A stretch of DNA of 64,000 bases from Candidatus Latescibacterota bacterium (GTDB lineage Bacteria; Krumholzibacteriota; Krumholzibacteriia; JACNKJ01), in assembly GCA_020633725.1 (NCBI GenBank), contig JACKDC010000004.1, positions 261,085-325,084 of the forward strand. The letters are read 5' to 3'. Positions 1,733 through 63,293 of the stretch are shown in pieces (position 1 is the stretch's first letter; each line of letters starts with the position of its first letter). The notes under the pieces were generated by a model. That model was given only the letters and a program-made list of their open reading frames with translations. It did no database searches and was not told where the DNA came from. The position numbers and the translations under genes are program-made.

Positions 1733-1773
1733 TCGCTGGCGTGGCACTCAAACTTGACTCGCCTGTCCTGAAA

Positions 1774-1791
1774 CCCGCCCCCGGGGGCGGG
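1774..1791. repeat. REP-like perfect palindrome CCCGCCCCCGGGGGCGGG (copy 1 of 7)
   Basis: Exact 18-nt self-complementary sequence; intergenic. Confidence 0.6.
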
Positions 1792-1830
1792 AGGCTGGGG
1801 CGCGCCGTGCGATTCCGTGCACTTGCCCCC

Positions 1831-1859
1831 TTGCCCCGCGAAGAAGAATACTATACATT
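1831..1859 (+). promoter_or_regulatory. sigma70-like promoter TTGCCC-N17-TACATT, part of duplicated conserved element (copy 1)
   Basis: AT-rich hexamer in 70% GC background; near-identical block atactatacatt and downstream leader conserved with copy at 18739-18790. Confidence 0.45.
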
Positions 1860-1950
1860 GGTATCCATGACAAGGGGTGGGATGCAGTTTCTTTCGAAGT
1901 CGGACGGAAGTTGCGACGGGACTGGCGGCCCTGCACGCGGGAGCTCTCCA

Positions 1951-1968
1951 CCCGCCCCCGGGGGCGGG
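1951..1968. repeat. REP-like palindrome CCCGCCCCCGGGGGCGGG (copy 2)
   Basis: Exact match; lies in leader between element promoter and CDS 1990. Confidence 0.6.
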
Positions 1969-1989
1969 TGGCCATGCTACAATTGGAGA

Positions 1990-3189
1990 ATGAAGCCGAC
2001 GATTGCCTCTGTTGGGAGTGCCTGGCTAGTCGTGATTGCCGTGCTGGGGGCGGGACCCGCGCGCTCTGCGACGCACCTGGTACCAGAGGGGCACTCGACG
2101 ATCCAGGGGGCACTGGCTGCTGCGGCGTCCGGCGACACGGTCAGCATCGCGCCGGGCACCTACTACGAGCACGACCTTGTGTGGCCGCCGGGGGTCCTGA
2201 TACTTGGCAGAGCAAGCAGCCCAGAACAGGTCGTGATCGATGGCCAGTTTCAAGGGCAGATCGTAGGTGGCGAGAACCTCGTCGGCGGGTCCGAGATCGG
2301 CTTTCTGACTCTCAGAGGTGGACTCGGGGCGGGGCTCTACGGCAGCGGGCTTCTGGCCAGCGGCGAAGCCTTCATCCATGACATCACGATCGAAGATTGT
2401 TCGGCCTCTCATGCGATCTACGGCATTGGCCTCTGTTCACTCGGCAAGATCACGATCTCGGACTGCACGCTGCGCCGAAACACCTCGACGGCTGCTGGTA
2501 CCCATGGCGGGGGGGCCTATCTGGCCAGCACAGGGCTAGGACTGACCTTCAGCATTTCGAATCTGGAAGTACATGAGAATGACGCGGAGCACGGGGCTGG
2601 AGTCTATGTGAACGGTTCACAGGGGACCATCTCCGGCCTGTACGCGCACGACAATCTTGGCTCCGGGCTCTCGGTATACGATGGGGACTGGGGGACCGGG
2701 CCCAGGGTCGAGAACTCCCTGTTCATCTCGAATGAGGGGTCGGGGGTCACCTTTGACGCAAGCCTGATCATGCAAAGTTGTACCGTGGTCGACAATGGTC
2801 CCGCGGGTTCCTGGATCGGCGGCATCAGTTGCGGTTCCACCTGGGACCATCCGCACAACCCGAGCATCACTCAGTGCATCGTGTTCGACAACAGAGGGTC
2901 GGGGATCAGCTGGTTGGATCCAACTTCGTTCGCGCTCAGCTGCAACGACGTCTACGGCAACGCCTACGCGAACTACGTCAACCTCGCCGACCAGACGGGG
3001 CTGAACGGCAACCTCTCCGAGGACCCGCGATTCTGCGGCCGCGGCGGCAGCCCCTACGCGCTCGCGGCCGACTCCCCCTGCGCGCCGGATAACAACGGCT
3101 GCGGCGTGCTGATGGGCGCCTTCCCGGTGGCCTGCGAGGGCACGGCCACGGAATCTCGCAACTGGAGCTCGATCAAGGCGCTGTACTGA
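1990..3189 (+). CDS. secreted right-handed beta-helix repeat protein (no CTD)
   Basis: ATG 1990 with GGAG 1985-1988 and/or TGCTACAAT 1973-1981 (possible leaderless start); signal peptide MKPTIASVGSAWLVVIAVLGAGPARSA; C-terminal NGNLSEDPRFC...DSPC..NNGCGV motif shared with CDS 60232. Confidence 0.7.
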   Translation: MKPTIASVGSAWLVVIAVLGAGPARSATHLVPEGHSTIQGALAAAASGDTVSIAPGTYYEHDLVWPPGVLILGRASSPEQVVIDGQFQGQIVGGENLVGGSEIGFLTLRGGLGAGLYGSGLLASGEAFIHDITIEDCSASHAIYGIGLCSLGKITISDCTLRRNTSTAAGTHGGGAYLASTGLGLTFSISNLEVHENDAEHGAGVYVNGSQGTISGLYAHDNLGSGLSVYDGDWGTGPRVENSLFISNEGSGVTFDASLIMQSCTVVDNGPAGSWIGGISCGSTWDHPHNPSITQCIVFDNRGSGISWLDPTSFALSCNDVYGNAYANYVNLADQTGLNGNLSEDPRFCGRGGSPYALAADSPCAPDNNGCGVLMGAFPVACEGTATESRNWSSIKALY

Positions 3190-13049: not shown

Positions 13050-15017
13050 ATGAAGCTCGGGCCGGCCATTCTCACGCTCTTGCTGGCAACCTCCGTGGCC
13101 ACCGCCGAGGCCCAGACCTGGGAGGCGGACGACGGGATCTTCAACCCCAGCGGCATTCCCTCGCTGACCTTCTCGCAGCCCCGGCTGGCGGATCTCGACG
13201 GCGACGGCGACCTCGACCTGATCCTCGGCAGCTCCGTCGACGCGCCGCTCTACTTCGAGAACGTCGGCACGCCCACCAGTCCGGCGTTCGCGCGCGGGGA
13301 CGACATCCTCGCTCCCATCGATCCCCTGGACGCCGAGATGGTCGTTGCGGGAGACCTCGACGGGGACGCCGACCTCGACCTCGTCACCGGGGGCTACCTG
13401 GGCCTGCAGCTCTTCACCAATGTCGGCGACCTGCACGCGCCAGCCTTCACGCGGGTCGACGGCTTCTTCGCCGGCCTCGCGGCGGGTTCGCTCCCCGTGC
13501 CGACCCTCGCCGATCTCGACGACGACGGCGACCTGGACCTGCTGGTCGGTCTCAGCGAGGATGGTCGCCTCAAGTTCTATCCCAACCTCGGGACGCCCGT
13601 CGCCGCCGTCTTCACCGAGGCCTCGGCCACGATCTGGTACGACGTCGGCCTCTACGCGTATCCCTGGTTCGCCGATCTCGACGGCGACGGGGACGTCGAC
13701 CTGCTCTCCGGTCGCGACCAGCACGGCTTCGTCTACTATCGCAACATCGGCAACCCGACCACGCCGATCTGGCAAAGCGCCGACGCGCTCTTCACGGGCC
13801 TCGGCGCCGCCACCTACTGGAACTCGCCCTGCCTGGTGGATCTCACGGGCGACGGCCGGCTCGACCTCATCCACGGCACCGACGCGGGGCCCCTGCAGTA
13901 CTACGTCAACACGGGCAGTCTCGAAGTGCCCGCCTGGACCGCGAACACGAGTCTCTTTGGCGGCGTGCTCGACGTCGGCGCGGCCAGCTCGCCGTTCTTC
14001 TTCGACTTCGACGGCGACGGCGACCTGGATCTGGCGAGCGGCAGCCAGCTCGGTGACATCAAGTACTTCGAGAACACCGGCACGGCGGCGGCGCCAGCCT
14101 GGCGCGCCGACCACGCCTACTTCGCCGGCATCGACCACTCGATCTACTCGGCAATCACCCTGGGGGACGTGAACGACGACGGCCTCGCCGACGCGGTTGC
14201 GGGCGACCTGAACGGCCAGCTGTTCTTCCACCCCAACACCGGCAGCGGCTTCGACTATGACGGCGCGGTCTTCACGGGAATCAACCTCGGCGGCTGGTCG
14301 GTGCCGCGCTTCGTGGACATGGACGGCGACCTCGACCTCGACCTGGTGGCCGGCAACGAGGCGGGACAGCTGACCTATCTCGAGAACCAGGGGACCGTCG
14401 CCGCGCCAGCGTGGGTTGTCATCCCCGGCTTCTTCGGCGGGCTCGACGTGGGCAGCAACTGCTCGCCGACCCTCGGCGACTTCGACGGCGACGGCGACCA
14501 GGATCTGATCACGGGGAACCTCTCGCACGCCGTGCGCTACTTCGCGCACGAGGGAGCAAGCTGGGTGGAGGACGCGAGCGTCCTGGCGGGGATCACCGCC
14601 GGCCAGAACGCGGCGCCGGCGCTCGCGGATCTCGACGGCGACGGGGACCTCGACCTCACGATCGGCAACTACGGCGGCACCTTCAACTACTACCGGAACC
14701 CGGGGCCCCCGACCTCCGTGCCGGAGGAGAGCGTGCCGGCCAAGGGGCTCGCGCTCGCCGCCTACCCCAACCCGTTCAACCCCACGACCGTCCTGCGCTT
14801 CCGCCTGAACGTGCCGGCGGCGGTGGAGCTCGCGATCTATGACCTGGCCGGACGCCAGGTCCGAACGCTGTCGACCGGCCCCCTGAGCGCGGGCGATCAC
14901 GAGGCGAAGTGGGACGGCCGCGACGCGCAGGGCACGCCCCTGAGTTCCGGCCTCTACTTTGCGCGCCTGCGCGCCGGCGGCGACCAGAGCGCGACGAAGC
15001 TCGTCCTCCTCAAGTAG
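13050..15017 (+). CDS. FG-GAP/VCBS-repeat protein with T9SS-type C-terminal sorting domain
   Basis: ATG 13050 with AGGGGGG RBS and upstream TGCTACAAT; signal peptide; >8 repeats of DLDGDGDLDL; C-terminus YPNPFNPTTVLRFRL...SGLYFARL...KLVLLK. Confidence 0.75.
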   Translation: MKLGPAILTLLLATSVATAEAQTWEADDGIFNPSGIPSLTFSQPRLADLDGDGDLDLILGSSVDAPLYFENVGTPTSPAFARGDDILAPIDPLDAEMVVAGDLDGDADLDLVTGGYLGLQLFTNVGDLHAPAFTRVDGFFAGLAAGSLPVPTLADLDDDGDLDLLVGLSEDGRLKFYPNLGTPVAAVFTEASATIWYDVGLYAYPWFADLDGDGDVDLLSGRDQHGFVYYRNIGNPTTPIWQSADALFTGLGAATYWNSPCLVDLTGDGRLDLIHGTDAGPLQYYVNTGSLEVPAWTANTSLFGGVLDVGAASSPFFFDFDGDGDLDLASGSQLGDIKYFENTGTAAAPAWRADHAYFAGIDHSIYSAITLGDVNDDGLADAVAGDLNGQLFFHPNTGSGFDYDGAVFTGINLGGWSVPRFVDMDGDLDLDLVAGNEAGQLTYLENQGTVAAPAWVVIPGFFGGLDVGSNCSPTLGDFDGDGDQDLITGNLSHAVRYFAHEGASWVEDASVLAGITAGQNAAPALADLDGDGDLDLTIGNYGGTFNYYRNPGPPTSVPEESVPAKGLALAAYPNPFNPTTVLRFRLNVPAAVELAIYDLAGRQVRTLSTGPLSAGDHEAKWDGRDAQGTPLSSGLYFARLRAGGDQSATKLVLLK

Positions 15018-16770: not shown

Positions 16771-18627
16771 GTGCCGGCTCGCCAGCGACTCACCCGCCTC
16801 GCCGTCCTCGTCCTCTTCGCGCTCGTTCCGCTGCTCGGGATGAGCCCGACCGTCGACGCCAGCGCCGAATCCCCGTCGGGGGAGGCCGCCACGCCCGCCG
16901 TGAAGGCGCCCGACAGCGCCGCGCTGCTGGCGACGCAGCTCCAGGCGGAGCTCACGCGCCTCGGCGAGAACACCGCGGCCTTCGCGCGCAATCCGGTCTT
17001 CCGCCAGCAGGAGCACTGGTACCGCCCCTGGCAGGAGAATGCGATCGTCCTGCTCATGGATCGCGCGCTGGACAACTTCGACAACCTGCTGCTCACCGAG
17101 CTGGTGGATCTGCGCGGGCAGCTGGTGGCCGTCAATGCGCACGACGGCCAGGAAGCGCCGCTGTCCACGCACCTCCTCTATCTCGAGGACTACGGCCGCC
17201 GCCCCTGGTTCACCGCCATGGCCGGCGCCGGTCCCGACGCCGCGCCGCGTCTTGATGGCCCGCTGGCCGACCCGGACGTCTCGCGCATCTACCCGGGCGC
17301 CGCGCCCTGCCTGCGCGTCACGGTGCCCGTGACCGTGGACGGCGAGGTCGTCGCCCTGCTCAGCCACTGCCTGCGCTTCGCGCCGCTCAGCGAGAAGCTG
17401 TCGGCGGCCATGGCGGCGCCGGGCGCCGCACCGGGCCTCACGCTGGCCCTGCTCGCCGCCGACGGTCACCTGCTCGCCGGCACCGTGCCCGGCCTCGGCG
17501 TCAGCGAGAGCGCGCTGCACGAGTATCCCGTCGAGGCGCCGGGCATGAGCCCCTGGGTGCTGCGCGCCTACCTGCCGCAGACGGCGGGCTGGCGCAACAA
17601 GCTGGCCGGCATGCTGCCGCCCCTGCCCGACACCGCCACGCTGCTGCGCTGGCCGGGCCGCATCTTCGCGATCACGGGGACGCTGATCCTGCTGCTGCTC
17701 GGCGCCGGCCTGCTGCGCGCGCGGCGTGCGGCGGTTCGTCCGGCGAGTCCGGGCCGTCCGCCCATGGCCGTGCCCCGCGGTCCGCTGACGCCCGCCGAGA
17801 AGGCCCTCGAACTGCTCAACGCCTCCTTGGGCGCCATGCTCGGCACGCTGCACGCGCTGGCCGGCGGCAGCCAGGACCTGGCCGAGCGTCGCCTCGATCC
17901 CGCCATCGCCAGCGGGCCGGGCTCCACGCGCGGCGCCCTGCGCCGGGTGGCCGGCCTGCGCGAGCTGCTGGGCGGGCTGGACAAGCACGTGACGGGCTGC
18001 CGCGAGGGCGGTCTCGCCGCGCCGATGCGTCAGGCCGTGGACATCTTCGGCCGCGTGGGTCGCCAGATGGAGGCGCTGGTCGAGCCGCTGCTCGAGACCG
18101 AGCGCCGCCTGGCGAGCCTTCCGCGTCACGGCCTCCGGTCCGGCGCGGAGCTGGACAACTACCACGCGCTCAGCGCATCGGTGCACCGCACCCTCGGCGT
18201 GATGAGCGCGCTGCAGGGCGCGCTGGGACGTCTCCCGCGCAAGGTCCTGCGCGGCGAGTGGTCGCCCGGCGAGGCCGGCGCCAGCGACTGGCAGCGCGTC
18301 GTCGACGAACTCCACGAACTGCTGCTGCTGCTCGCCCGCCAGGTGGGCGCCACGCTCAAGCTCCTCGAGCTGATGCCCGCGAGCGCGGGATCGGTGATCG
18401 AGGTGCGCGACGTGAGCGCGGCCGTCCTGGCCGGCCGGTCGGCGCTGGCCGCGTCGGCGAGCGTCGGCGGGGCGGCGACCGTCGTCCTGGGCGGCGATGG
18501 GGACGGTGACTCCGCGGCGGCGGCCGAAGCGACCGCCGAGCCCGAGCCCCGCTATCACGAGGCGGCCGCCAGCGCGGCGGCGCCTTCCACCCCACGCTTC
18601 GAGGTGCTCGGCGGCAGCCGCAACTAG
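16771..18627 (+). CDS. hypothetical two-TM membrane protein with periplasmic sensor-like domain, no recognisable output domain
   Basis: Proposed GTG 16771 with AGGGGG RBS; N-terminal TM/signal LTRLAVLVLFALVPLLG, second TM IFAITGTLILLLLGAGLL, helical C-terminal region; no kinase/MCP motifs seen. Confidence 0.45.
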   Translation: MPARQRLTRLAVLVLFALVPLLGMSPTVDASAESPSGEAATPAVKAPDSAALLATQLQAELTRLGENTAAFARNPVFRQQEHWYRPWQENAIVLLMDRALDNFDNLLLTELVDLRGQLVAVNAHDGQEAPLSTHLLYLEDYGRRPWFTAMAGAGPDAAPRLDGPLADPDVSRIYPGAAPCLRVTVPVTVDGEVVALLSHCLRFAPLSEKLSAAMAAPGAAPGLTLALLAADGHLLAGTVPGLGVSESALHEYPVEAPGMSPWVLRAYLPQTAGWRNKLAGMLPPLPDTATLLRWPGRIFAITGTLILLLLGAGLLRARRAAVRPASPGRPPMAVPRGPLTPAEKALELLNASLGAMLGTLHALAGGSQDLAERRLDPAIASGPGSTRGALRRVAGLRELLGGLDKHVTGCREGGLAAPMRQAVDIFGRVGRQMEALVEPLLETERRLASLPRHGLRSGAELDNYHALSASVHRTLGVMSALQGALGRLPRKVLRGEWSPGEAGASDWQRVVDELHELLLLLARQVGATLKLLELMPASAGSVIEVRDVSAAVLAGRSALAASASVGGAATVVLGGDGDGDSAAAAEATAEPEPRYHEAAASAAAPSTPRFEVLGGSRN

Positions 18628-18647
18628 AGCTTCATGTTCCTCCCAAG

Positions 18648-18665
18648 CCCGCCCCCGGGGGCGAG
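18648..18665. repeat. REP-like palindrome CCCGCCCCCGGGGGCGAG (copy 4), 21 nt after stop of CDS 16771..18627; extra GGGGGCGGG half-site at 18694-18702
   Basis: Read from sequence. Confidence 0.55.
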
Positions 18666-18738
18666 TCGGATCTCCAGGGTCCGAGTCGCAGTCGGGGGCG
18701 GGTTCTCGCTTGCCTGCCGTTTTCTCCGCACTCGCCTC

Positions 18739-18767
18739 TTGACCTAGCCTCAATGATACTATACATT
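18739..18767 (+). promoter_or_regulatory. sigma70-like promoter TTGACC-N17-TACATT of duplicated element (copy 2)
   Basis: Same architecture and conserved atactatacatt block as 1831-1859. Confidence 0.45.
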
Positions 18768-18774
18768 AGCATCC

Positions 18775-18875
18775 TATGCAAGGGGTAAAGTCCCGGTTTT
18801 GTGGAGGTTGCACGGCAGCGCCTGGCCCGCACCTCCCGCCCCCGGGGGCGAGCAGGACCACCGGGTCCGGTTTTT
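18775..18875 (+). ncRNA. candidate small RNA (~100 nt): conserved 5' leader, REP palindrome, intrinsic terminator
   Basis: Starts ~7 nt after -10; conserved blocks shared with 1860-1968; ends in hairpin GGACCaccgGGTCC followed by TTTTT (18855-18875); no downstream + strand gene (convergent bat operon end). Confidence 0.3.
18835..18852. repeat. REP-like palindrome (copy 5) inside candidate sRNA
   Basis: CCCGCCCCCGGGGGCGAG. Confidence 0.55.
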
Positions 18876-18896
18876 CGATGGGGACGTCCGCGAGCG

Positions 18897-21539
18897 CTAG
18901 AGCGACGCGAAGCTGCCCTGGGGGATCCAGCCCTCGAGCTCGTCGCCGAGGTGGACGCGGACCCAGTTGCCGCGGGTCTCGTCGATGCGCAGTTCCGCGC
19001 CGGCGTGGATCTCGAAGAGTGTGAGGAAGTCCGTGCCGGGTCCGCTGGTCACGGACACCGTGGGCGAGAGGAGCACGGCCTCGCGGCCGCTCCAGTCGGT
19101 CCACTCCACGGCCCAGGCGGCGACGGACACCAGCGGCAGCAGCACGGCCAGTGCGATCAGCACGACGCGCAGCCGTCGCCAGGCGACGATCCGCAGCAGG
19201 CCCAGCAGCAGCAGCGCCGTGCCCAGCCAGAGCAGCACGAGCCCCAGCGCGGCGAGCTCGCCCGGCGAAACGTGCTGGCGCAACCAGCGCCACGCGCCGC
19301 TCCAGGCGCCGCCGCCGGTGCTGCGCGTGTCGCCGTCGGGTCGGCGAGAGCGCGCGAGGGCGAGGTTGTCGCGGACTTCGCTGTCGCGTGGGGCGAGGCG
19401 CTGCGCGCGACGGTAGTCGAGGATCGCGCGGCCCAGGTCGCCCTGCTGGTAGTAGGCGTTGCCGAGGTTGTACCAGAGATGGCTGTCCTCCACGCCTTCC
19501 CGCGCGAGGGACTCCCAGATGCCCGCCGCGGCCTGGAAGTCGCCGGCCTCGTAGCGCGCGGCGGCGTCGGCCATGCGCTGCAGCGTGTCGTCGGCGGCGT
19601 GGGCGGGCCGAGGCGCCAGCGCCAGCGCGAGCAGGAGGAGCGGCAGCAGGCCGCCCAGCAGGCCGGCGCCCTTGCGCGCCGGGCGCGTCTCGCGGTCGAG
19701 ACGCGGCAGCAGCGCGCGGGCCTGCTCGAGCAGCGTCGCCATGCGCGCGCCGCTGTGCTCGGCTGCGCCCGGAGCGTAGCGCGCGAAGTCGCAGGCGTCG
19801 AGCAGTCGGCGCGTCTCGGTGCAGGCCTCGTCGGAGGCGCCCGCGCGGCGCAGCGCGCCCTCGGCGACGTCCCCGGTCAGGCCCGCCGCCGACAGCTTCA
19901 GCCGGTCGGCCAGGTAGCCGCGCAGGCCGCTGGCCAGCTCGGCGCAGAAGCCGCCGAAGTCGCCCGCGGCGTGAGCCTTCTCCGCGGCGCGGAGACGTTC
20001 CTCGGCGCTCTTGCGCGCGCCGCGCGCACGGAAGCCCGCCGCGTCGGAGAGCTGCGCGTCGCGGCGGCGACGCCAGAACCAGGTGCCCGCCAGCAGCGGC
20101 CAGGGCAGCGCCAGCGCGGTCCAGAAGCCGGCCGAGCGGGGGAAGCGGGCGCCGTCGCCGGCGAGCGGCGGGTCGGTCTTGATGTGGTGGATGTCCCTGC
20201 CCAGCAGCTCCACGCGGTCGGGCGTGAGGTCGCTGAAGACCACGGGTTCGCTGGCCTCCGTCTTGCCCGGCGCCACCTGCAGCGTGACGCCCTTCGTCTC
20301 CACGCTGCGATAGCGGCGCTGATCGGGGTCGAACCAGGAGTAGCTCACGCCGGGCAGCGAGAGCTCGCCCTCGCGGCGCGGCACCACGACGCGGGTGTAG
20401 CGCTTCTGGACCTGGATGGCGTCGCCGTCCACCTGCGTGTCGCTCTGCAGCTCGGCGTCGTAGGCCTTGAAGTCGACGCCGGGATCGTAGTCCGGCTCGG
20501 CGAAGGCGCGCGGATTGCCGAAGCCGCTGAGCGTGAGCGTCACCGTGATCGGCTGGCCGACGGCGTAGGGGCCGGGGTCCGTCTTCAGGGACACGCTGAA
20601 CTGCTGCGCCACGGTGCCCTTGAAGCCGGCGGGGCGGCCCGCGTCGGGCAGGGGCAGCACCGTCACCGGCACGGGCGGCGTGCGCAGCACCTTCTCGGGG
20701 CCGGCGTCGAAGGCGAAGAACTCGAAGCGGCTGCGGTCGCGCAGGCGCAGCTGGATCTGCGCGGGGCCGATCTCCAGCTGGCCCGGCTCGCTGGGGAAGA
20801 GCGCCGCGCGCAGCTCGGTGGCGGCGTAGTTGACGCCGTCCACCTGGCGGTAGCCGCTGATCTCGTCGCCGAGGGGTTCGGACCAGAAGCCGGTGAAGTC
20901 GGGGGCGCCGTACTGCGGCTGGCCGATGAAGCTCACGGTCGGCCGGCGATAGAGCGCGAAGTGATGCGTGAGCTGCTGGCCCACGTAGACGGAATCCGCG
21001 TCCACCCAGGAGCGGATGAAGACGTCGCGGTTGCCCGCCGTGGCGCTCTCCTGCTGCACTGGCGGCGCGCTCGGCTGGCCGGCCGGCGGCACGCCCGCCT
21101 GCGGGGCGCCGGAGGTCGCGGGGCGCACGTTGACGCGCATCGCGCGCGTCTCGTAGATCTGCCCCTTCACGCGCACGGGGACGGCCGGAATCGTGAGCTC
21201 GCCGCTGCGCAGCGGCACCAGCGTGTAGCGGTAGGTCTTGCTGCTGCTCGCCTGGCCGTTGACCCAGGAGAAGTTACTGGAGCTGGAGCTGCCCACGAGG
21301 CCGAAGTCGTCGAGTTCGGGCAGCTCGGGCGCATCGCTGCCGCGCATCGCGCCGGAGACGACGATGGTATAGTTGAAGGACTCGCCCTCGCGGATGATGC
21401 CGCCGTCCAGGGTGGCCTCCACCTGGACGTCGTCGGCGAGGGCGCGCACGGGCCAGGCGCCTGCCACGGCGGTGGCGAACAGGACGGCGAGGCAGAGCGC
21501 CGGCGCCCTCCGCGTGATCCGCTCCAGCGTCGACATCAC
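18897..21539 (-). CDS. batD: BatD-like protein continuous with BatE-like TPR + SH3b region (apparent BatD-BatE fusion, ~880 aa)
   Basis: ATG overlaps batC stop (ATGA); N-terminal signal MSTLERITRRAPALCLAVLFATAVA, large periplasmic domain, TM FWTALALPWPLLAGTWFWRRRR; same frame continues without stop into TPR segment and C-terminal SH3b-like domain (…WVRVHLGDELEGWIPQGSF). Confidence 0.65.
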   Translation of the reverse strand: MMSTLERITRRAPALCLAVLFATAVAGAWPVRALADDVQVEATLDGGIIREGESFNYTIVVSGAMRGSDAPELPELDDFGLVGSSSSSNFSWVNGQASSSKTYRYTLVPLRSGELTIPAVPVRVKGQIYETRAMRVNVRPATSGAPQAGVPPAGQPSAPPVQQESATAGNRDVFIRSWVDADSVYVGQQLTHHFALYRRPTVSFIGQPQYGAPDFTGFWSEPLGDEISGYRQVDGVNYAATELRAALFPSEPGQLEIGPAQIQLRLRDRSRFEFFAFDAGPEKVLRTPPVPVTVLPLPDAGRPAGFKGTVAQQFSVSLKTDPGPYAVGQPITVTLTLSGFGNPRAFAEPDYDPGVDFKAYDAELQSDTQVDGDAIQVQKRYTRVVVPRREGELSLPGVSYSWFDPDQRRYRSVETKGVTLQVAPGKTEASEPVVFSDLTPDRVELLGRDIHHIKTDPPLAGDGARFPRSAGFWTALALPWPLLAGTWFWRRRRDAQLSDAAGFRARGARKSAEERLRAAEKAHAAGDFGGFCAELASGLRGYLADRLKLSAAGLTGDVAEGALRRAGASDEACTETRRLLDACDFARYAPGAAEHSGARMATLLEQARALLPRLDRETRPARKGAGLLGGLLPLLLLALALAPRPAHAADDTLQRMADAAARYEAGDFQAAAGIWESLAREGVEDSHLWYNLGNAYYQQGDLGRAILDYRRAQRLAPRDSEVRDNLALARSRRPDGDTRSTGGGAWSGAWRWLRQHVSPGELAALGLVLLWLGTALLLLGLLRIVAWRRLRVVLIALAVLLPLVSVAAWAVEWTDWSGREAVLLSPTVSVTSGPGTDFLTLFEIHAGAELRIDETRGNWVRVHLGDELEGWIPQGSFASL

Positions 21540-22327
21540 CAGTCCTTCTCCACGTCCGGGTTGCGCGGCTTCAGTTCCTTGCTGCGCTCGGCCTGCAGCT
21601 CCTTCTCCTCCTCGAGCATGGCGTCGAGGAGGCGCTGGGCGTCCTCGGGGCTCATCTGCTCGGTGTCGTCGGGCGCGGCCTGTTCGAGCTGATCCTGCTG
21701 CTGCTGCTCCTGCTCCTGCGGCTGCTGTTGATCCTGGGGCTGATCCTGCGAGTCGGGCTGCGGCTGCTGATCCTGCTGGCTCTGATCCTGCTGCTGCTGC
21801 TGATCCTGATCCTGGTCGCCCTCGCTCTGGTCCGGTTTCTCGCTCTGTTGCTGCTGCTCCTGCTGCTGCTCCTGCATCTGCTTGAGGACGATCTCGTAGT
21901 TGTGCCGCAGCTCCATGTCCTCGGGGTCGAGCAGCATGCCGGCCATGTAGGTCTGCAGCGCGGGCTCGAGCTGTCCCGAGGTCGCCAGCGCGTTGCCCAG
22001 ATCGTAGAGCGCGCCGGCGCGCGCCTGGGGCGTCTCGGCGAAGCGCACGGCCTGGCTGTAGGCGGCGAGGCCTTCCTCCATCTGGTTCGAGCGGGCGAGC
22101 GCCCCGGCGAGATTCTGCTGGAGGACCGGGTTCTCGGGCCGCTTCAGGGCCTCCTCGCGGTAGATCTTCGCCGCCTCGCCGTAGTCGCCCTTCTCCACCA
22201 GGGCGTTGCCCTTGGCGTTGGCGCGCACGGTGGCCAGCGGCGCCTTGGGGACGGCGGCGTCCTCGGCGTGGACCGCGCTCGCCCCCGCGAGCGCGAGCGC
22301 AGCCGCGACTAGAAGCGGCCGGACCAT
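21536..22327 (-). CDS. batC: BatC-like TPR protein with Gln/Glu/Asp-rich low-complexity tail
   Basis: Signal peptide, TPR-like helices, long QQQEQQ.. tail; position between batB and batD. Confidence 0.65.
   Translation of the reverse strand: MVRPLLVAAALALAGASAVHAEDAAVPKAPLATVRANAKGNALVEKGDYGEAAKIYREEALKRPENPVLQQNLAGALARSNQMEEGLAAYSQAVRFAETPQARAGALYDLGNALATSGQLEPALQTYMAGMLLDPEDMELRHNYEIVLKQMQEQQQEQQQQSEKPDQSEGDQDQDQQQQQDQSQQDQQPQPDSQDQPQDQQQPQEQEQQQQDQLEQAAPDDTEQMSPEDAQRLLDAMLEEEKELQAERSKELKPRNPDVEKDW
21655..21895 (-). repeat. CAG/CAA/GAG-rich low-complexity coding repeat (poly-Q/E/D tail of BatC)
   Basis: ctgctgctgctcctg... tracts on plus strand. Confidence 0.6.
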
Positions 22328-42904: not shown

Positions 42905-42950
42905 GGTCCTGCGGGTCCTTCGGCGCGGACGGTGGGTGTCCGGCGCGAGC

Positions 42951-43688
42951 TCAGTACAGCGACTTTACTGCAGAGAAGCTCGTGGGCTCTACGACGACGA
43001 TCCCGTCGCTCTCGATCTCCATCCCGAGGAGAATCTCGCCCATCCCGTAGTCGCTGAAGTAGATGCCTAGCGTATAGAGGTCGCGGTCCCCCGGAGGCTC
43101 GGGGGCAGGGGCGGTGTCTCGGCCAAACCATGTGTTTAGTATGGCAGACAGGTGCACATGGTCCGAGGATTGGTCTCGCCAAAGCATGGGATGGTGGCCG
43201 TCGGCACCTCCACCGGCGAGGGGCCGGATGAACACCCCGAAGGTCTCCTCCTCGTTCGAACCACCCAGCGCGAACCAGTGAAATACATCAAGCTCCTCCC
43301 AGCAGTAGTTGCAAGTGGTCGTATACTCGTTGAGTCGCTGAAAGGAAAAGCCCTCTGATCCGTCGCTGTAGCGAATCCGGTAGATCAGATGTACCTCATA
43401 GGGGATGCCAGACTCGGCGTAGTCGCCGCCATGGTAGAACCAGATCCGCTGAACGATGAAACCCTCGTCAAAGGTGTCGTCCGGCCAGGTCATGAAGTTC
43501 CCCACCACTGTAGTGCTGGTTGGCCCCCAGATCGGCGAGTAAGGGACGCCATCGTGGATGTCAATCGACAGAAAACCGCGTTCTGTCGGCGCGGCCGTGG
43601 CGCTGGAAGGAACTCCTAGGCCAAGGGCAGCAAGCATGGCCGAAAGCAAGATGGCGTAGCTAAAACTGAACGATCTGCAGATTCGCAT
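42951..43688 (-). CDS. hypothetical secreted protein (lower-GC island)
   Basis: ATG 43688 with GGAGG RBS; signal peptide MRICRSFSFSYAILLSAMLAALGLGVPSSATA; no family recognised. Confidence 0.45.
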   Translation of the reverse strand: MRICRSFSFSYAILLSAMLAALGLGVPSSATAAPTERGFLSIDIHDGVPYSPIWGPTSTTVVGNFMTWPDDTFDEGFIVQRIWFYHGGDYAESGIPYEVHLIYRIRYSDGSEGFSFQRLNEYTTTCNYCWEELDVFHWFALGGSNEEETFGVFIRPLAGGGADGHHPMLWRDQSSDHVHLSAILNTWFGRDTAPAPEPPGDRDLYTLGIYFSDYGMGEILLGMEIESDGIVVVEPTSFSAVKSLY

Positions 43689-44163
43689 TAGGGGCCTCCA
43701 CATCGACCGTGAGGACAACCGATTCCTCCTGTGGCGCAAGCCGAAGAAGCAGGCTGTCCCCAGGACACGGCAAGGAATCCAGCATCGCCAAAGGGCTCAA
43801 GTCGAATAGAATCTCTCGGTGTTCGCCGTCCTCCTTGGCGGGGAACAGGTCGAGGAGCTGGAGCATGGACACTTCGTCATCTCCGCTACGGCAAAGGACC
43901 TCAAGGCCGAGAAGGACATCGTCGTCACTCAGAGAAACCGGAGTGACGAGTAACCATTCTAGCACGATCTGCCGACCAGTCGCCACGATGCCTGCGCCGC
44001 CTACGACAGTCACGAACCCCCCGCTGCTGGCGTCCGCAGCAAAGGCAAGGGCCGTCTCCTCGATCTCGAGTGCTCTGCAGTGTGAGGAGTGAATGGAAGC
44101 TGTGGCAACGGCGACCACAAGAACGACCTTGCCCAACCTCAAGCTTCTGGGATTACTTGACAT
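43660..44163 (-). CDS. hypothetical secreted protein (lower-GC island)
   Basis: ATG 44163; signal-like MSSNPRSLRLGKVVLVVAVATASIHS; overlaps neighbours by 11 and 29 nt. Confidence 0.4.
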   Translation of the reverse strand: MSSNPRSLRLGKVVLVVAVATASIHSSHCRALEIEETALAFAADASSGGFVTVVGGAGIVATGRQIVLEWLLVTPVSLSDDDVLLGLEVLCRSGDDEVSMLQLLDLFPAKEDGEHREILFDLSPLAMLDSLPCPGDSLLLRLAPQEESVVLTVDVEAPNANLQIVQF

Positions 44164-47100
44164 AGATCACCTTCCCCTTGAGTGTCTTGGCTTCTCCGAC
44201 GATGCGGTACAGGTAGACTCCCGAGCTGACAGGCTGGCCCTGTTCGGAGTCGCCCCTCCAAATGAAGAGCTGATCACCGTTCTCGCCAATCGTTGCCGAG
44301 AGCCTCCGGACTTCCCGGCCAAGGATGTCAAAGACCTGGAGTCTTGCCGGAGCGCCGGGTGCCCTATAGCGGAAGTGAATCTGCCCGTTGAACGGGTTCG
44401 GCCAAGCGCCCTCAGGTGGTGGAGCCGCGGACTCTATACCGATGTAGAAACCGGGGTCAGTAGGACTCGTCCCGCAGGCGAAGAGAGAGTTCTGAGCGGT
44501 CCAGGGTCCGAAATCGACGCGCGTTGAATCGGGCTTGAAGAACGCGTCAGGGCACATGCAGTCAATCCCATAGTCCTCCCCAAAGCCCTCGCAGGTCCCC
44601 CAGGCATTGCCCTCCGCCGGAATGACGTTGGTCGTGGCGTTGTAGATGCGCACCATCTCAACTTCGGCAGCGTCCTCGTAGCAGGAAGCTGGTGTTCCCT
44701 GCACGTACGTCCAGCAGTCCGCACTGGTGGTTAGCGGCGCGATGAAGTTTCCGCCCGCGCTCTGACCCGGCGCGCCAAGGTCAACGGTACCGCTCCAGGC
44801 GTAGTTGATAACGCCGTAGTCACACAAGTGGATGTCGACGTGGTCCAGGCTGAGCTGGGCGGAGTCCCAGTTCTTAGCCCCGACCCGTGGACCCGCAATG
44901 TCGCAGTACTGGGCGTAGACTCTAGAACTCCCCCTGCATTGGATCCCGGTTTCAGGAGCAACTGCAGCTGAGTGCGGTTCGATCGTTAGGTTTGGCCCAA
45001 GGTACGCCATCGGCTGGTGCGGCATGAACTTCTCACCGATCTGAATGCCCGTCCTAAGGAAGTACATCTCCGTGTTGGATACACTGAGGGTACCCCTCAT
45101 GCAGTAGACCAGGGGAGGAGGCAGGGAGAGGAGAGACTGGAAGTTCTCCCGCTGAGAGATCGTACAATTCGCGATCTCAGCCGACCTGCCGACTCCCGAG
45201 TCGATCCAGATTCGATTGACACTCGGGATCTCGCAGTACTCCAGCGCGGGCTCCCGCGGGCCATTCTGAAGATCAAGGACGATTGCGTTGTCGTTGGTGT
45301 CGGCCAGATAGAGCGTGGAGTAGCTTATTCTCACGAGGGCGCTGTCGGCGACGATCTGCTCCGCGTCATTCAGCCGGCAGTAGTCGAGGTCCAATAGCCC
45401 GAGATTCTCTGCGAAAAGCCCTGCGTAGTCTGTGTTCGTGTCCCCCGGAAGAATCGACGGGAGAAACTCCACTGGCGCTTCGGCGGTGCCTCTCACCAGG
45501 AGGGAGCCTCCATCGGCCACGATTTTGGACGTAGCGTTTCGGAAGTAGACCCTGGCTCCCTCTTCAACCGTGAGGTCGCAACCCGGCAGGATCCGTACCT
45601 CACCGTCGACCCAGGCCGTTTCACCAGCTTCGACGACGACATGGCAGTCGGTACCACCAATCGTGTCGGGGAGGCTCACGACTGTGTCCGGAACGGTCTG
45701 AAAGCGGTACTCGTAGGGCAGCATGATGGGATTGAGGTTCCCCGCGACCCCTTCCTTGGGAACAAGCGTGAGCACTAGCGCAACAGCATCGCTATTCCCC
45801 TTGCCGAAGTCCGTCACGTTGAAATCAACGACCTGCCCTGGCGCAGGCTCGATCCAGTGGGTCTCGATGCTGCGCTTCCGTTCGCCGTACACATCCAGGC
45901 CATTGTCGCGTGGATCTAGGTCGTCCGGTGCGAAGGGCAGGTCATAGCCAATCAGATCCACGGCGAGTCGGACTTTGCCTTCGTACGCCGCCGTCACCGA
46001 TTGCAGTGCATAGGCGCTGTCTGGATCGGTGGGGCAGATCATGCAAGGATACTCATCGAGGAAGCGGAAGCTGACACTGAGGTCCACCCCAGAAGTGTCC
46101 GGGGGCTGGAACACAAGGTAGTTGCTAGCGAAGGTCTGGACCCCTACCAAGCGTCGCTTGTTCCACTCCGGAACGAACCAGCTGTAGTCATCCGCGTCGC
46201 AGTCCGTGGGCCAGTAATCTGAGCTGAACTGCCACCCGGACACCACCTGACGATCGGACGAGCACGTGTGGTAGGGAGGAAACGCCTGGATGTTGTCGTA
46301 GCAAACCCCGTTCGAGTCCTGAAGGAAGTTGTACAGCGCCTGAGGCTGGTAGCCATCGGGATCGTCGCCCTCTCCGAGCCACTGGTAGATTTCCTCATCC
46401 GATGTGGGACTCTGAAGGTTGAGAAACTTCGCGAGGCCATAGGCGCGGAAGACCTCGTTGACACGCTGGTGCGGGCTCGCACTGGAAGACGAGAAAAAGG
46501 CATCGAGGTCTGGGACATCCAGCGCAATCCCCAGTCCCGGGAAATTGTGCAAGTAGGTCCGATGGCCCTCATCTTCCGTGTAGGTGCGGATCCAGCGGTA
46601 GACCAGGCTGTCCTCTAGCGCTTCGCCGGGCAACGTGAATACGTTGTCCAGGTAGATCGCGAACATCGCCCAGTCATTGTAGACGTTGCCAAACCTCGAA
46701 AGGCACCCCGACCCGAGGAGGCTGTCCTGGGTCACGGGTACCGCGTTCTGGCAGGCCGAGGCGTAGTGAGAGCCGCTTCCGTTATTGCTGACCGGGGTAT
46801 CATAGGGAGACGTGTGCGTATCGGAGCCATCCAGGCCGTACTTGGATGCGGAAAGCACAGAGCACATTTCGTCGAAGCTCTCGAATATCGATGTGCTCCG
46901 ATCCACACGTTGCCAGCTGTGGTGGCAAACATGCTGCCACTCGTGTGCGAAGGCGTCGCGCGCGACCTCCCAAGGTGTCAAGAACTGCCCGTCTTGGCCC
47001 TCGATGTGGGCTGTCACGTACTCATGTGTCGCATTGATAACCCGGCAGGTGTCGAAGATGTAGATTCCGAAGTGGGTGTAGGTCGTGTCCTGCCCCGCGG

Positions 47101-47548
47101 GGGCACCAGTCTTGGTCTGGATTCCGAAGAGCGTATCGACGGAAGCGAACGCGTCCTCGCCGAAGTAGTCGAGGATCGACTTCGCCATTCCACTCACATC
47201 ACCCGCCAGCGAGTCGACGACGATGTTGGCAAACTCGCGCAAGTCGTCTTCGTCCCATCGGGAGCCAGGGGCCCCAGTGGCCCCAGGGGCGCCCGGCTCC
47301 CAGCAGAGGAAGACCGTGAAGTGCTTGTTGAAGATGGGGTTCCCGGCAAAGACCGTCGAGTCGACGGGCGCGAGAGAATCTCCATCGGCGCAAATCAGCT
47401 GGAGGCCATCATCGCAATCTCGGAACTGGGTCGCGTGGACCAGCGAAGAGAGGGAGAGCAGCGCTACCAAGCTCAAAGCGCGCAGGAGCCAAACAAAAAG
47501 CGCCAGCAGTTGCCGGCGCGAATTGGCGGGATTCGGTCCATTCGTCAT
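44153..47548 (-). CDS. large secreted protein with single HExxH zinc-metallopeptidase-like motif and T9SS-type CTD (lower-GC island)
   Basis: ATG 47548 with AGGAGGG RBS; signal peptide; FAHEWQHVCHH motif with downstream FESFDE; C-terminus WPNPFNGQIHFRYRAP...SGVYLYRI...KVIYVK; 1131 aa. Confidence 0.65.
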   Translation of the reverse strand: MTNGPNPANSRRQLLALFVWLLRALSLVALLSLSSLVHATQFRDCDDGLQLICADGDSLAPVDSTVFAGNPIFNKHFTVFLCWEPGAPGATGAPGSRWDEDDLREFANIVVDSLAGDVSGMAKSILDYFGEDAFASVDTLFGIQTKTGAPAGQDTTYTHFGIYIFDTCRVINATHEYVTAHIEGQDGQFLTPWEVARDAFAHEWQHVCHHSWQRVDRSTSIFESFDEMCSVLSASKYGLDGSDTHTSPYDTPVSNNGSGSHYASACQNAVPVTQDSLLGSGCLSRFGNVYNDWAMFAIYLDNVFTLPGEALEDSLVYRWIRTYTEDEGHRTYLHNFPGLGIALDVPDLDAFFSSSSASPHQRVNEVFRAYGLAKFLNLQSPTSDEEIYQWLGEGDDPDGYQPQALYNFLQDSNGVCYDNIQAFPPYHTCSSDRQVVSGWQFSSDYWPTDCDADDYSWFVPEWNKRRLVGVQTFASNYLVFQPPDTSGVDLSVSFRFLDEYPCMICPTDPDSAYALQSVTAAYEGKVRLAVDLIGYDLPFAPDDLDPRDNGLDVYGERKRSIETHWIEPAPGQVVDFNVTDFGKGNSDAVALVLTLVPKEGVAGNLNPIMLPYEYRFQTVPDTVVSLPDTIGGTDCHVVVEAGETAWVDGEVRILPGCDLTVEEGARVYFRNATSKIVADGGSLLVRGTAEAPVEFLPSILPGDTNTDYAGLFAENLGLLDLDYCRLNDAEQIVADSALVRISYSTLYLADTNDNAIVLDLQNGPREPALEYCEIPSVNRIWIDSGVGRSAEIANCTISQRENFQSLLSLPPPLVYCMRGTLSVSNTEMYFLRTGIQIGEKFMPHQPMAYLGPNLTIEPHSAAVAPETGIQCRGSSRVYAQYCDIAGPRVGAKNWDSAQLSLDHVDIHLCDYGVINYAWSGTVDLGAPGQSAGGNFIAPLTTSADCWTYVQGTPASCYEDAAEVEMVRIYNATTNVIPAEGNAWGTCEGFGEDYGIDCMCPDAFFKPDSTRVDFGPWTAQNSLFACGTSPTDPGFYIGIESAAPPPEGAWPNPFNGQIHFRYRAPGAPARLQVFDILGREVRRLSATIGENGDQLFIWRGDSEQGQPVSSGVYLYRIVGEAKTLKGKVIYVK

Positions 47549-47701
47549 ATCGGCCCTCCTGGCTAGTGGTAATCATAGCTCAGGAATCAGCACCTGTACA
47601 GGGGGGGGGCGGCGATTTGGCAATGAAAACATGCCGAGGCAGGCGGCCTGGTGGGCACGGGCGGTGTCGGCCTCGGGGGCGGACACCGGAATCGCCGGAC
47701 G

Positions 47702-58976: not shown

Positions 58977-60113
58977 TCAGATCCCTCGAACGATGCGCCA
59001 GACCTTCCCGCCCCCCTCCATGACGTAGAGCTCCCCCCTGTGGTCGCGGCCGAAGGACGTCACCGGCCCCAAGTCCTTGAGAATCTCCAGAGTAGCTCCC
59101 GAAACGGGGTCGAAGGCCCACACCTTCCCCGCGCACCAGTCGGAGTAGAAGTAGTGCCCGGCCAGCTCCGGCAGCGCCGCGCCCCGGTAGACGTGCCCAC
59201 CGGTGATCGAGCAGCCCATCCGGTGCGAGTACTCGTGGACGGGGTCCACCAGGCCCGGGCGCTCGCAATCCTCGGGCGGGTCGTAGCAGTGGGCGCCCTC
59301 GCGCAGGCGCCAGCCGTAGTTGAGGCCGCCGGCGCCCGCGGGCTGGCGGTCGATCTCCTCCCAGGCCTTTTGACCCACGTCGGCGATCCAGAGCTCGTCC
59401 GTGGCCGGATCGAAGCTGAAGCGCCAGGGGTTCCGCAGCCCATACGCCCAGATCTCGGGCCGCGCGCCCGCGGTCTCCACGAAGGGGTTGTCCGGCGGGA
59501 TGCCGTAGGCCGCCCCCGGGGGCGGGTTGTCGACGTCCAGGCGCAGGATCTTGCCCAGCAGGCTGCCGAGGTCCTGCGCCCGGTTGCCGGGGTCGCCGGC
59601 GCCGCCGCCGTCGCCCATGCCGATGTAGAGGTAGCCGTCGGGGCCGAACTCCACCATGCCGCCGTTGTGGTTCGTGTTGGGCTGCTCGATGCTGAGGATC
59701 GTCCGCGCGCTGGCCGGGTCGGCGGCGCCCGGGCTCGCGGCCCGGAACTCGACGATCTGCGTGGTCCCGCGGCGGTCGGTGTAGTCCACCACGAAGCGCC
59801 GGTTGTCGGCGAAGCCCGGGTGGAAGGCGAGGCCGAGCAGGCCGCGCTCGCCGCCGCCCCGGGCGTCGGGGTCGAAGACCTCGCCGCTCAGGTCGAGGAA
59901 GGGCGCCTCGCGCAGGGCGTCGCCGACCATGACGCGGATCCGCCCGCTCTGCTCCACGATGAAGCTGCGCACGCTGTCGCCCGGGGCCTGGACCAGGTAG
60001 AGCGGCTTGTGGAGCGCGTCGGAGAGCAGTTCCGCGCGGTAGTCGCTGGCGGGGCTCGAGCAGGCGGCGGCGAGGGCGCAGCTCGCGGTCAGCAGGAGCG
60101 GGAGTCGTCGCAT
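58977..60113 (-). CDS. PQQ-dependent soluble sugar dehydrogenase-like protein (paralog without CTD)
   Basis: ATG 60113 (MRRLPLLLTASCALAAACSS); same GLLGLAFHP, NHNGG, YGLRNPWRFSFD motifs. Confidence 0.75.
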   Translation of the reverse strand: MRRLPLLLTASCALAAACSSPASDYRAELLSDALHKPLYLVQAPGDSVRSFIVEQSGRIRVMVGDALREAPFLDLSGEVFDPDARGGGERGLLGLAFHPGFADNRRFVVDYTDRRGTTQIVEFRAASPGAADPASARTILSIEQPNTNHNGGMVEFGPDGYLYIGMGDGGGAGDPGNRAQDLGSLLGKILRLDVDNPPPGAAYGIPPDNPFVETAGARPEIWAYGLRNPWRFSFDPATDELWIADVGQKAWEEIDRQPAGAGGLNYGWRLREGAHCYDPPEDCERPGLVDPVHEYSHRMGCSITGGHVYRGAALPELAGHYFYSDWCAGKVWAFDPVSGATLEILKDLGPVTSFGRDHRGELYVMEGGGKVWRIVRGI

Positions 60114-60177: not shown

Positions 60178-60206
60178 TTGGCGCTGGCCGCCGGCGCTGG
60201 TATAAT
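60178..60206 (+). promoter_or_regulatory. sigma70-like promoter TTGGCG-N17-TATAAT upstream of CDS 60232
   Basis: Perfect TATAAT 60201-60206 in GC-rich context; GGAGG RBS 60221-60225. Confidence 0.45.
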
Positions 60207-63258: not shown

Positions 63259-63293
63259 CCGCCCCCGGGGGCGAGTAGGACCGCTTGGTCCGG
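63259..63293 (+). terminator. REP-like palindrome (copy 7, CCGCCCCCGGGGGCGAG) followed by hairpin GGACCgcttGGTCC; terminator-like module after CDS 60232..63258
   Basis: Same two-hairpin arrangement as 18835-18875 but without T-tract. Confidence 0.4.

Follow-up and report, generated by a model that had tools for sequence, protein, structure and literature searches.

The 64-kb window analysed here (the whole stretch of DNA, 69.6% GC, from a Candidatus Latescibacterota bacterium) carries a two-copy, non-coding element in which an AT-rich, promoter-like core is bracketed by GC-rich palindromes. We tentatively favour reading it as an orphan promoter module, specific to this lineage and flanked by hairpins, from which a short non-coding RNA would be made, with copy 2 as a free-standing + strand unit of ~100 nt and copy 1 as its paralogue. 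All coordinates are positions within the window, whose sequence is in contig JAWKQP010000006.1 of the metagenome-assembled genome (MAG) GCA_041390085.1; the sister assembly GCA_020633715.1 carries the same locus. Transcription of the element, its strand, the ends of the RNA and any function of that RNA are inferred from the DNA sequence.

Two homologous copies of a non-coding element

Sequence and alignment confirmed two + strand copies where the initial annotation had placed them, in homologous segments at ~1820-1971 (copy 1) and ~18729-18877 (copy 2), and the promoter-like TTG(C/A)CC-N17-TACATT, the 12-mer ATACTATACATT, ATCC and CAAGGGGT are all present as it described. The 12-mer occurs exactly twice in the 64 kb, at 1848 and 18756, against a chance expectation of 0.06, and no further site was found in the window even when two mismatches were allowed. 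When the copies were compared by nhmmer, with the GC palindromes removed before alignment, 1833-1910 aligned with 18741-18818 (E ~1e-4). The blocks CTTGmCC (m = C/A), ATCC and CAAGGGGT are common to both, and the solid homology extends over ~50 nt as CTTGmCC-N11-ATACTATACATT-rGyATCC-N4/5-CAAGGGGT, with ~67% identity over the 49-nt core by a hand count on the alignment of the two copies. The rarity of AT-rich signals on this background was likewise borne out: just 7 stretches in the 64 kb reach 10 A/T in 12 positions, and the two copies are the longest pair among these AT-rich islands. The features of both copies are listed below.

Copy 1
1773..1794, unstranded: left GC palindrome, REP-like hairpin ACCCGCCCCCGGGGGCGGGAGG, 95% complementary to 1948-1969
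1823..1836, + strand: tandem TTGCCC..TTGCCC, the second hexamer (1831-1836) being the + strand -35-like box
1826-1833, + strand: CCCCCTTG, left arm of the dyad CC(C/T)CTTG-N37-CAAGGGG, read from sequence and alignment
1848..1859, unstranded: shared 12-mer ATACTATACATT, containing the + strand -10-like TACATT (1854-1859) and overlapping the - strand -10-like TATTCT (1850-1845)
1853..1864, unstranded: perfect operator-like dyad ATAC-ATTG-GTAT, within the 17-nt spacer of the - strand promoter-like site
1863..1878, + strand: conserved block ATCC-N4-CAAGGGGT, the putative RNA 5' end in the + reading
1863..1878, - strand: in the - reading the same block gives the -35-like TTGTCA (1873-1868), with CCCC in front
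1905..1936, + strand: weakly conserved GGAAGTTGCGACGG...GGCCCTGCAC (p ~0.05 against dinucleotide shuffles)
1948..1971, unstranded: right GC palindrome, perfect over 24 nt, CCACCCGCCCCCGGGGGCGGGTGG, with no U-tract after it
1975..1992, + strand: TGCTACAAT, extended -10-like box (1975-1983) before the beta-helix ATG, outside the repeat; read from sequence, with a putative promoter role

Copy 2
18646..18702, unstranded: left hairpin block, made up of a palindrome (18648-18665), GGATC..GGTCC and the half palindrome CGGGGGCGGG
18739..18767, + strand: promoter-like TTGACC-N17-TACATT, 9/12 matches
18756..18767, unstranded: shared 12-mer ATACTATACATT, exact
18761-18772, unstranded: dyad ATAC-ATTA-GCAT, one core mismatch
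18781-18776 and 18758-18753, - strand: TTGCAT-N17-TATCAT, overlapping the 12-mer at 18756..18767
18771..18786, + strand: conserved block ATCC-N5-CAAGGGGT, from the alignment
18803..18832, + strand: weakly conserved GGAGGTTGCACGG...GGCCCGCAC, from the shuffle test
18835..18877, + strand: two-hairpin terminator module, with the right palindrome (18835-18853), then GGACCACCGGGTCC, then GGTTTTTCG

The significance of partial similarities was assessed with 2000 dinucleotide shuffles per region. The downstream internal blocks, GGA(A)GTTGC(G)ACGG and CTGGC..GCAC, do exist as annotated, but their conservation is marginal, as 91-98 of the 2000 shuffles match the score (p ~0.05); the upstream similarity alone is reached by 849 of 2000 (p ~0.4) and is not significant. 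The conserved part is thus mostly the promoter region plus the first ~20 nt of the putative RNA. Palindromes aside, the flanks of the two copies are unrelated, so the similarity is not a piece of a larger duplication, a possibility that the initial annotation had itself raised. Six-frame comparison revealed no conserved peptide between the copies in any frame, and the frame of the ATG relative to CAAGGGG differs between them; conservation therefore acts at the nucleotide level, as had been proposed. A small protein encoded by the element was rejected on the same evidence, and the lack of a conserved open reading frame (ORF) is what is required of a small RNA (sRNA).

Searches by nhmmer, a two-sequence hidden Markov model and fuzzy matching gave no third copy in ~200 kb of the lineage; they covered the window, L001, 8 kb upstream of the window and ~150 kb from relatives. 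A scan of a genome collection with CTATACATTNNNATCCN{2,6}CAAGGGG returned a single chance match, in coding-like DNA of a Bacillota MAG, and a viral scan returned two chance matches only. From metagenomes, ATACTATACATTN{8,12}CAAGGGG retrieved 32 loci of 32-54% GC, among them no high-GC locus and none of this lineage.

A putative short RNA from the promoter-like core

In the mechanism we propose, the module would consist of ~50 nt, an AT-rich core with TTG-containing arms, set between two standard GC hairpins; RNA polymerase would initiate within the AT-rich core and be halted by the hairpin 60-105 nt away. For copy 2 the most likely product would be a + strand RNA of ~100 nt (~18774-18877) that starts with AUCC..CAAGGGGU and ends in the palindrome, a GGACC/GGUCC hairpin and a U-tract. 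The corresponding unit of copy 1 (~1866-1971) would end at the palindrome just 5' of a strain-variable secreted beta-helix gene, which is probably expressed from its own extended -10 promoter and to whose expression read-through from copy 1 could add.

Two observations favour the + strand. Conservation runs longer on the + side (p ~0.05) than on the - side (p ~0.4), and an oriented terminator module with a U-tract occupies 18835-18877, where the 3' end of copy 2 comprises two hairpins followed by U5. As a palindrome and second hairpin also follow the stop of a + strand gene at 63259, the module at 18836 would end a + strand transcript. Moreover, copy 2 lies between convergent genes (a + strand gene with its stop at 18627 and a - strand BatD-TPR-SH3 gene with its stop at 18897), so that there is nothing else there to transcribe. 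Of the earlier description of copy 2 as free-standing with a clean terminator, the orphan position, the hairpin and the + strand U-tract stand, but the terminator stem is only 5 bp.

Promoters were called as matches to the sigma70-type consensus, scored out of 12. Read on the + strand, copy 1 gives TTGCCC-N17-TACATT (8/12) and copy 2 TTGACC-N17-TACATT (9/12); read on the - strand, copy 1 gives TTGTCA-N17-TATTCT (9/12) and copy 2 TTGCAT-N17-TATCAT (8/12). The consensus scan picked up copy 1 on the - strand only and copy 2 on the + strand only. By this measure the sigma70-like reading of the core is equally good on either strand and its strand is ambiguous; what survives of the duplicated promoter-bearing element first annotated is its non-coding, promoter-like nature, not its orientation. 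In favour of the module, housekeeping promoters elsewhere in the window look sigma70-like, with TTGACA...TACTAT before the tRNA and TTGGCG-N17-TATAAT at 60178-60206.

Several results weigh against a + strand sRNA in both copies. On the + strand copy 1 matches at only 8/12 positions, and the scan calls it on the opposite strand. In the sister assembly the copy 1 spacer has (GAA)2 in place of (GAA)3 (window 1840-1848 vs L002 9851-9855), the sole inter-assembly difference over the 320-nt spacer and one that falls between the -35-like and -10-like boxes; with these 3 nt deleted, the + strand spacer of copy 1 measures 14 rather than 17 nt, the - strand site is unaffected, and the alternative + pairing TTGCCC(1823-1828)-TACTAT is spaced by 17 nt. 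The folding energy of the putative RNAs is ordinary (z = +0.6), and RNAalifold identified no helix shared by the two beyond the generic palindrome. In Rfam, only a tRNA passes the gathering threshold in the entire window. The copy 1 hairpin is a 12-bp GC palindrome that lacks a U-tract. Finally, there are just two copies in one species and no relative examined carries the element, which falls short of the small RNA "family" that had been envisaged.

The conserved structured RNA body suggested by the initial annotation does not survive these comparisons. Conservation is mainly that of the promoter and ~20 nt, and a structured RNA was rejected on the folding energy and the lack of consensus helices. 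No compensatory changes across homologues were seen, with only two sequences to compare and relatives lacking the element. The Infernal/Rfam scan it had called for gave no match, the best local matches at permissive settings scoring 18-19 bits against thresholds of 43-49 and lying on the palindrome.

A repeated GC palindrome brackets both copies

The palindrome CCGCCCCCGGGGGCG, previously counted as part of the element, turned out to be generic. It has 8 exact copies in the window, 7 of them intergenic, and the search yielded 20 strand-matches at 11 loci (8 exact) where 3.4 were expected. The perfect form is CC(C)GCCCCCGGGGGCG(GG), found in intergenic DNA at 1775, 1952, 3222, 18649, 18836, 38581 and 63259; the copy at 59510 is coding and encodes NPPPGAA. 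Five of the seven intergenic palindromes (1775, 3222, 18649, 38581 and 63259) lie 1-106 nt past a stop codon; a sixth, at 18836, is found 46 nt past that of the convergent BatD-like gene. Three palindromes, those at 18649, 18836 and 63259, are followed, in the same orientation, by a second small hairpin, GGAyC-N4/5-GGTCC. The relatives have 0-1 palindromes per 22 kb vs 8 per 64 kb here, which points to a species-specific REP-like (repetitive extragenic palindromic) or terminator hairpin rather than a signature of the repeat.

A further hairpin module adjoins the palindrome at 1678-1732, with 12-bp arms GCGAGTGCTTTG/CAAAGCACTCGC. An inverted copy of it, 77% identical, follows the beta-helix gene in the other allele (L046 2235-2300) but not in the window, indicating that intergenic hairpin modules are reshuffled between strains.

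This setting would also accommodate a selfish or neutral composite repeat, either a REP doublet (REPIN-like) or a unit of ~200 nt (1773-1971; 18646-18853) resembling a miniature inverted-repeat transposable element (MITE), whose promoter-like core is incidental or occasionally used; we regard this as possible, though rather unlikely. Besides the enrichment of the palindrome, such a repeat would account for the palindrome doublets (177 and 187 nt apart), which occur around the two copies only, all other intergenic palindromes being solo, and for the 22-nt inverted terminal arms of copy 1, which are 95% complementary. Both copies are insertions relative to the relatives, and the reshuffling of other hairpin modules between strains points the same way. 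Whole palindrome-to-palindrome units do fold as long hairpins (z = -3.7 and -4.0), but it is the palindromes that pair with each other: complementarity of the inner arms is not significant (p ~0.3), so that a long-hairpin symmetry of the arms was rejected, and a palindrome that is self-complementary makes "inverted" orientation meaningless. The element is, besides, most conserved at its centre and not at its ends, there are two copies only, and no target-site duplication was seen in the flanks of either. No RAYT or transposase turned up, although no genome-wide search for either was made.

A possible operator dyad and the - strand

Both copies contain the dyad CC(C/T)CTTG-N37-CAAGGGG. Nested in it, copy 1 has the sole perfect ATAC-N4-GTAT in the ~200 kb of the lineage, and copy 2 the sole one-mismatch version with an AT-rich spacer. 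If the promoter faces the - strand, this inner dyad would lie in its spacer, and the module could be a repressor-controlled promoter, possibly of LexA/SOS type, whose short - strand RNAs end at the left palindrome. We consider this unlikely. The - strand call of copy 1 and the survival of its - strand site in the sister assembly would follow naturally from it, and on the - strand the left palindrome of copy 1 is followed by UUU; however, neither copy has a gene on its - side, and the - strand RNAs show no significant similarity (p ~0.4).

The case for LexA comes from the metagenome scan, in which ~20 of the 32 loci are lexA or umuD promoters of low-GC organisms, with LexA genes identified by Pfam PF01726 + PF00717 and the UmuD-like and CysE-like neighbours by sequence motifs only. 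These promoters, TTGACA-AC-TAAAC/TATAC-AAAT-GTATA-G-TATnnT, match the - strand of the element in the same register position by position, including the 12-mer AATGTATAGTAT and the ATAC-N4-GTAT core. Yet the likeness arose from a pattern built on the element and applied to a very large pool (7866 LexA homologues), and an unbiased sample of lexA promoters keeps the box without the CCCC. No lexA gene is present in the window or the fetched loci, and the boxes compared may not be those of the host; the outer dyad positions (CT..AG) are not mirrored in the window copies; and no DNA-damage gene stands beside either copy, their neighbours being a protease, the beta-helix protein, BatD and one protein without an assigned role.

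In an abundant uncultured low-GC lineage, palindromic (AC)TATAC-N4-GTATA(GT) occurs in the spacers of lexA and umuD promoters, lexA being divergent from a cysE-like gene (lexA loci L012, L017, L018, L024, L029, L031, L034, L037, L039, L040 and L047-L056; umuD-like loci L013, L020 and L025). The low-GC box has the look of a LexA-binding motif in the GAAC-N4-GTTC class, and neither it nor ATAC-N4-GTAT is listed in the summary of LexA motifs given by PMC4951493. A dif/Xer site and a Fur box were rejected by eye as identities of the core, since only the central TGTATA or AATGATA is similar and the arms differ.

Both copies were gained in this lineage

To return to the orphan promoter module that we favour, its two loci can be compared with those of relatives. 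BatD-TPR-SH3 orthologues from three relatives are 50-69% identical, and the spacer between them and the next gene measures 9 bp in L005, 59 bp in L006 and 270 bp in L007, the last being unrelated sequence. The beta-helix orthologues (52-58% identity) belong to a tight operon of protease, 163-167 aa ORF and beta-helix gene, in which the secreted, conserved ORF (L041 611-1102, L043 9486-9989, L045 3583-4086) separates the gene of the FlgD_ig protease from that of the beta-helix protein; in the window, its position is taken by copy 1. That copy 1 is a remnant of this ORF was rejected, as tblastn gave no match. Because the syntenic loci of the relatives lack the element, both copies were gained in this lineage, a pattern that fits lineage-specific sRNA genes or portable promoters.

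Copy 1 lies 124 nt 5' of the beta-helix ATG (1990), with a strong hairpin 18 nt before the ATG. The box TGCTACAAT (1975-1983) ends 7 nt before this ATG, which GGAGA abuts, and the beta-helix gene may thus be transcribed from an extended -10 promoter of its own into a leaderless mRNA. In that case copy 1, just as copy 2, would form a self-contained unit that stops at the 1948-1971 palindrome. Given the intervening hairpin and the gene's own TGCTACAAT box, the long leader that the initial annotation had considered for the coding sequence at 1990 is not required. Promoter, hairpin and gene do follow one another as in an attenuator, and the distance and hairpin just given would suit a cis-acting 5' leader (riboswitch or attenuator) of the beta-helix gene with copy 2 as a decayed remnant, but this is improbable: there is no Rfam riboswitch or leader match and no shared structured core, copy 2 has kept a complete terminator with no downstream gene, the beta-helix orthologues of relatives have no such leader and stand in an operon behind the 163-167 aa ORF, and a paralogue elsewhere in the window, starting at 60232, uses a different promoter. 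We deem it highly improbable that the element is a portable, repressor-controlled bidirectional promoter cassette (with a LexA-type ATAC-N4-GTAT operator) between REP hairpins, mobile in the lineage, which would have replaced an operon-internal gene before a hypervariable beta-helix gene and elsewhere would fire a free-standing, stress-induced sRNA.

The beta-helix gene itself varies between strains. In a second allele from the same MAG bin (L046) the flanks, including copy 1, are 99.6-100% identical, whereas the gene body (1995-~3200 vs L046 940-2170) shows 40-60% nucleotide identity and 44% protein identity, a difference suggestive of a surface or secreted protein that has been replaced or has diversified at the strain level.

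Three further features of the window were noted. An island of 4.6 kb (~42950-47550) has 59-60% GC in a neighbourhood of ~71% GC, encodes a 1131-aa FlgD_ig / T9SS-tail protein and two proteins without a Pfam match, and adjoins hisS and a tRNA gene; it was possibly acquired horizontally. Nine tandem units of ~160 nt, rich in D-x-D-G-D, occupy 13184-14714, and the gene with these units has FG-GAP and FlgD_ig Pfam matches in L001. Immediately upstream of the BatD-like gene, 21679-21899 is a CTG-rich stretch of low complexity.

If the orphan module is transcribed, it would be among the first candidate sRNA or promoter modules reported from an uncultured Latescibacteria-like lineage, and an example of a promoter-bearing repeat inserted at a formerly operonic locus beside the gene of a strain-variable secreted protein. 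At present this two-copy, species-restricted candidate is of value mainly as a pointer for metatranscriptome mapping.

Comparison with known systems

The Correia elements of Neisseria are MITEs that carry promoters or spawn sRNAs, and MITEs of Coxiella are reportedly linked to sRNAs as well. Like such elements, which can alter the expression of neighbouring genes, the units described here are ~200 nt long and intergenic, with terminal inverted repeats and internal promoter-like boxes; unlike them, they have no target-site duplication and number only two, and their terminal repeats are the genome's common hairpin. In tests against the features of Rfam families, mobile promoters and MITEs, the element matched none of the three, and the structured aptamer before a gene in each copy that would mark a riboswitch or cis-leader was not found.

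By the definition of Matus-Garcia et al. (2012, PMC3488235), putative mobile promoters are segments of 50-100 nt that share >=80% identity and lie upstream of non-homologous genes. The element resembles them as a promoter-bearing non-coding segment at unrelated loci of one genome, with copy 1 upstream of a gene that relatives drive from an operon, and differs in that its identity is ~67% over a 49-nt core and copy 2 has no downstream gene.

REP sequences are short GC-rich extragenic palindromes, and for their doublets with a spacer (REPINs) a long hairpin is predicted (Bertels and Rainey 2011, PMC3116915). An extragenic palindrome over-represented in one species, with doublets predicted to fold as a long hairpin, is likewise found here. 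In contrast to REPINs, however, the palindrome is perfectly self-complementary, the spacer is long (~150-170 nt) with a conserved AT-rich centre, no significant complementarity links the arms that flank the centre, and there are two doublets only.

LexA (SOS) boxes fall into several classes, including GAAC-N4-GTTC, that are summarised in PMC4951493. With these the element shares a 4-N4-4 dyad in the spacer of a sigma70-type promoter, in the register of low-GC lexA/umuD promoters. It differs from them in having no SOS gene downstream and an imperfect second half-site in copy 2, and the likeness came from a biased search.

OmrA/OmrB of enterobacteria exemplify paralogous intergenic sRNA genes whose ends are conserved and whose middle varies. 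Unlike genes of this type, the element is not conserved in related genera, and its conserved part lies mostly upstream of the putative start. As a putative sRNA it shares with them a candidate sigma70-like promoter of its own, a predicted length of ~100 nt, the lack of an ORF, a terminator-like hairpin, conservation of ~20 nt at the 5' end and the presence of two diverged paralogues in one genome.

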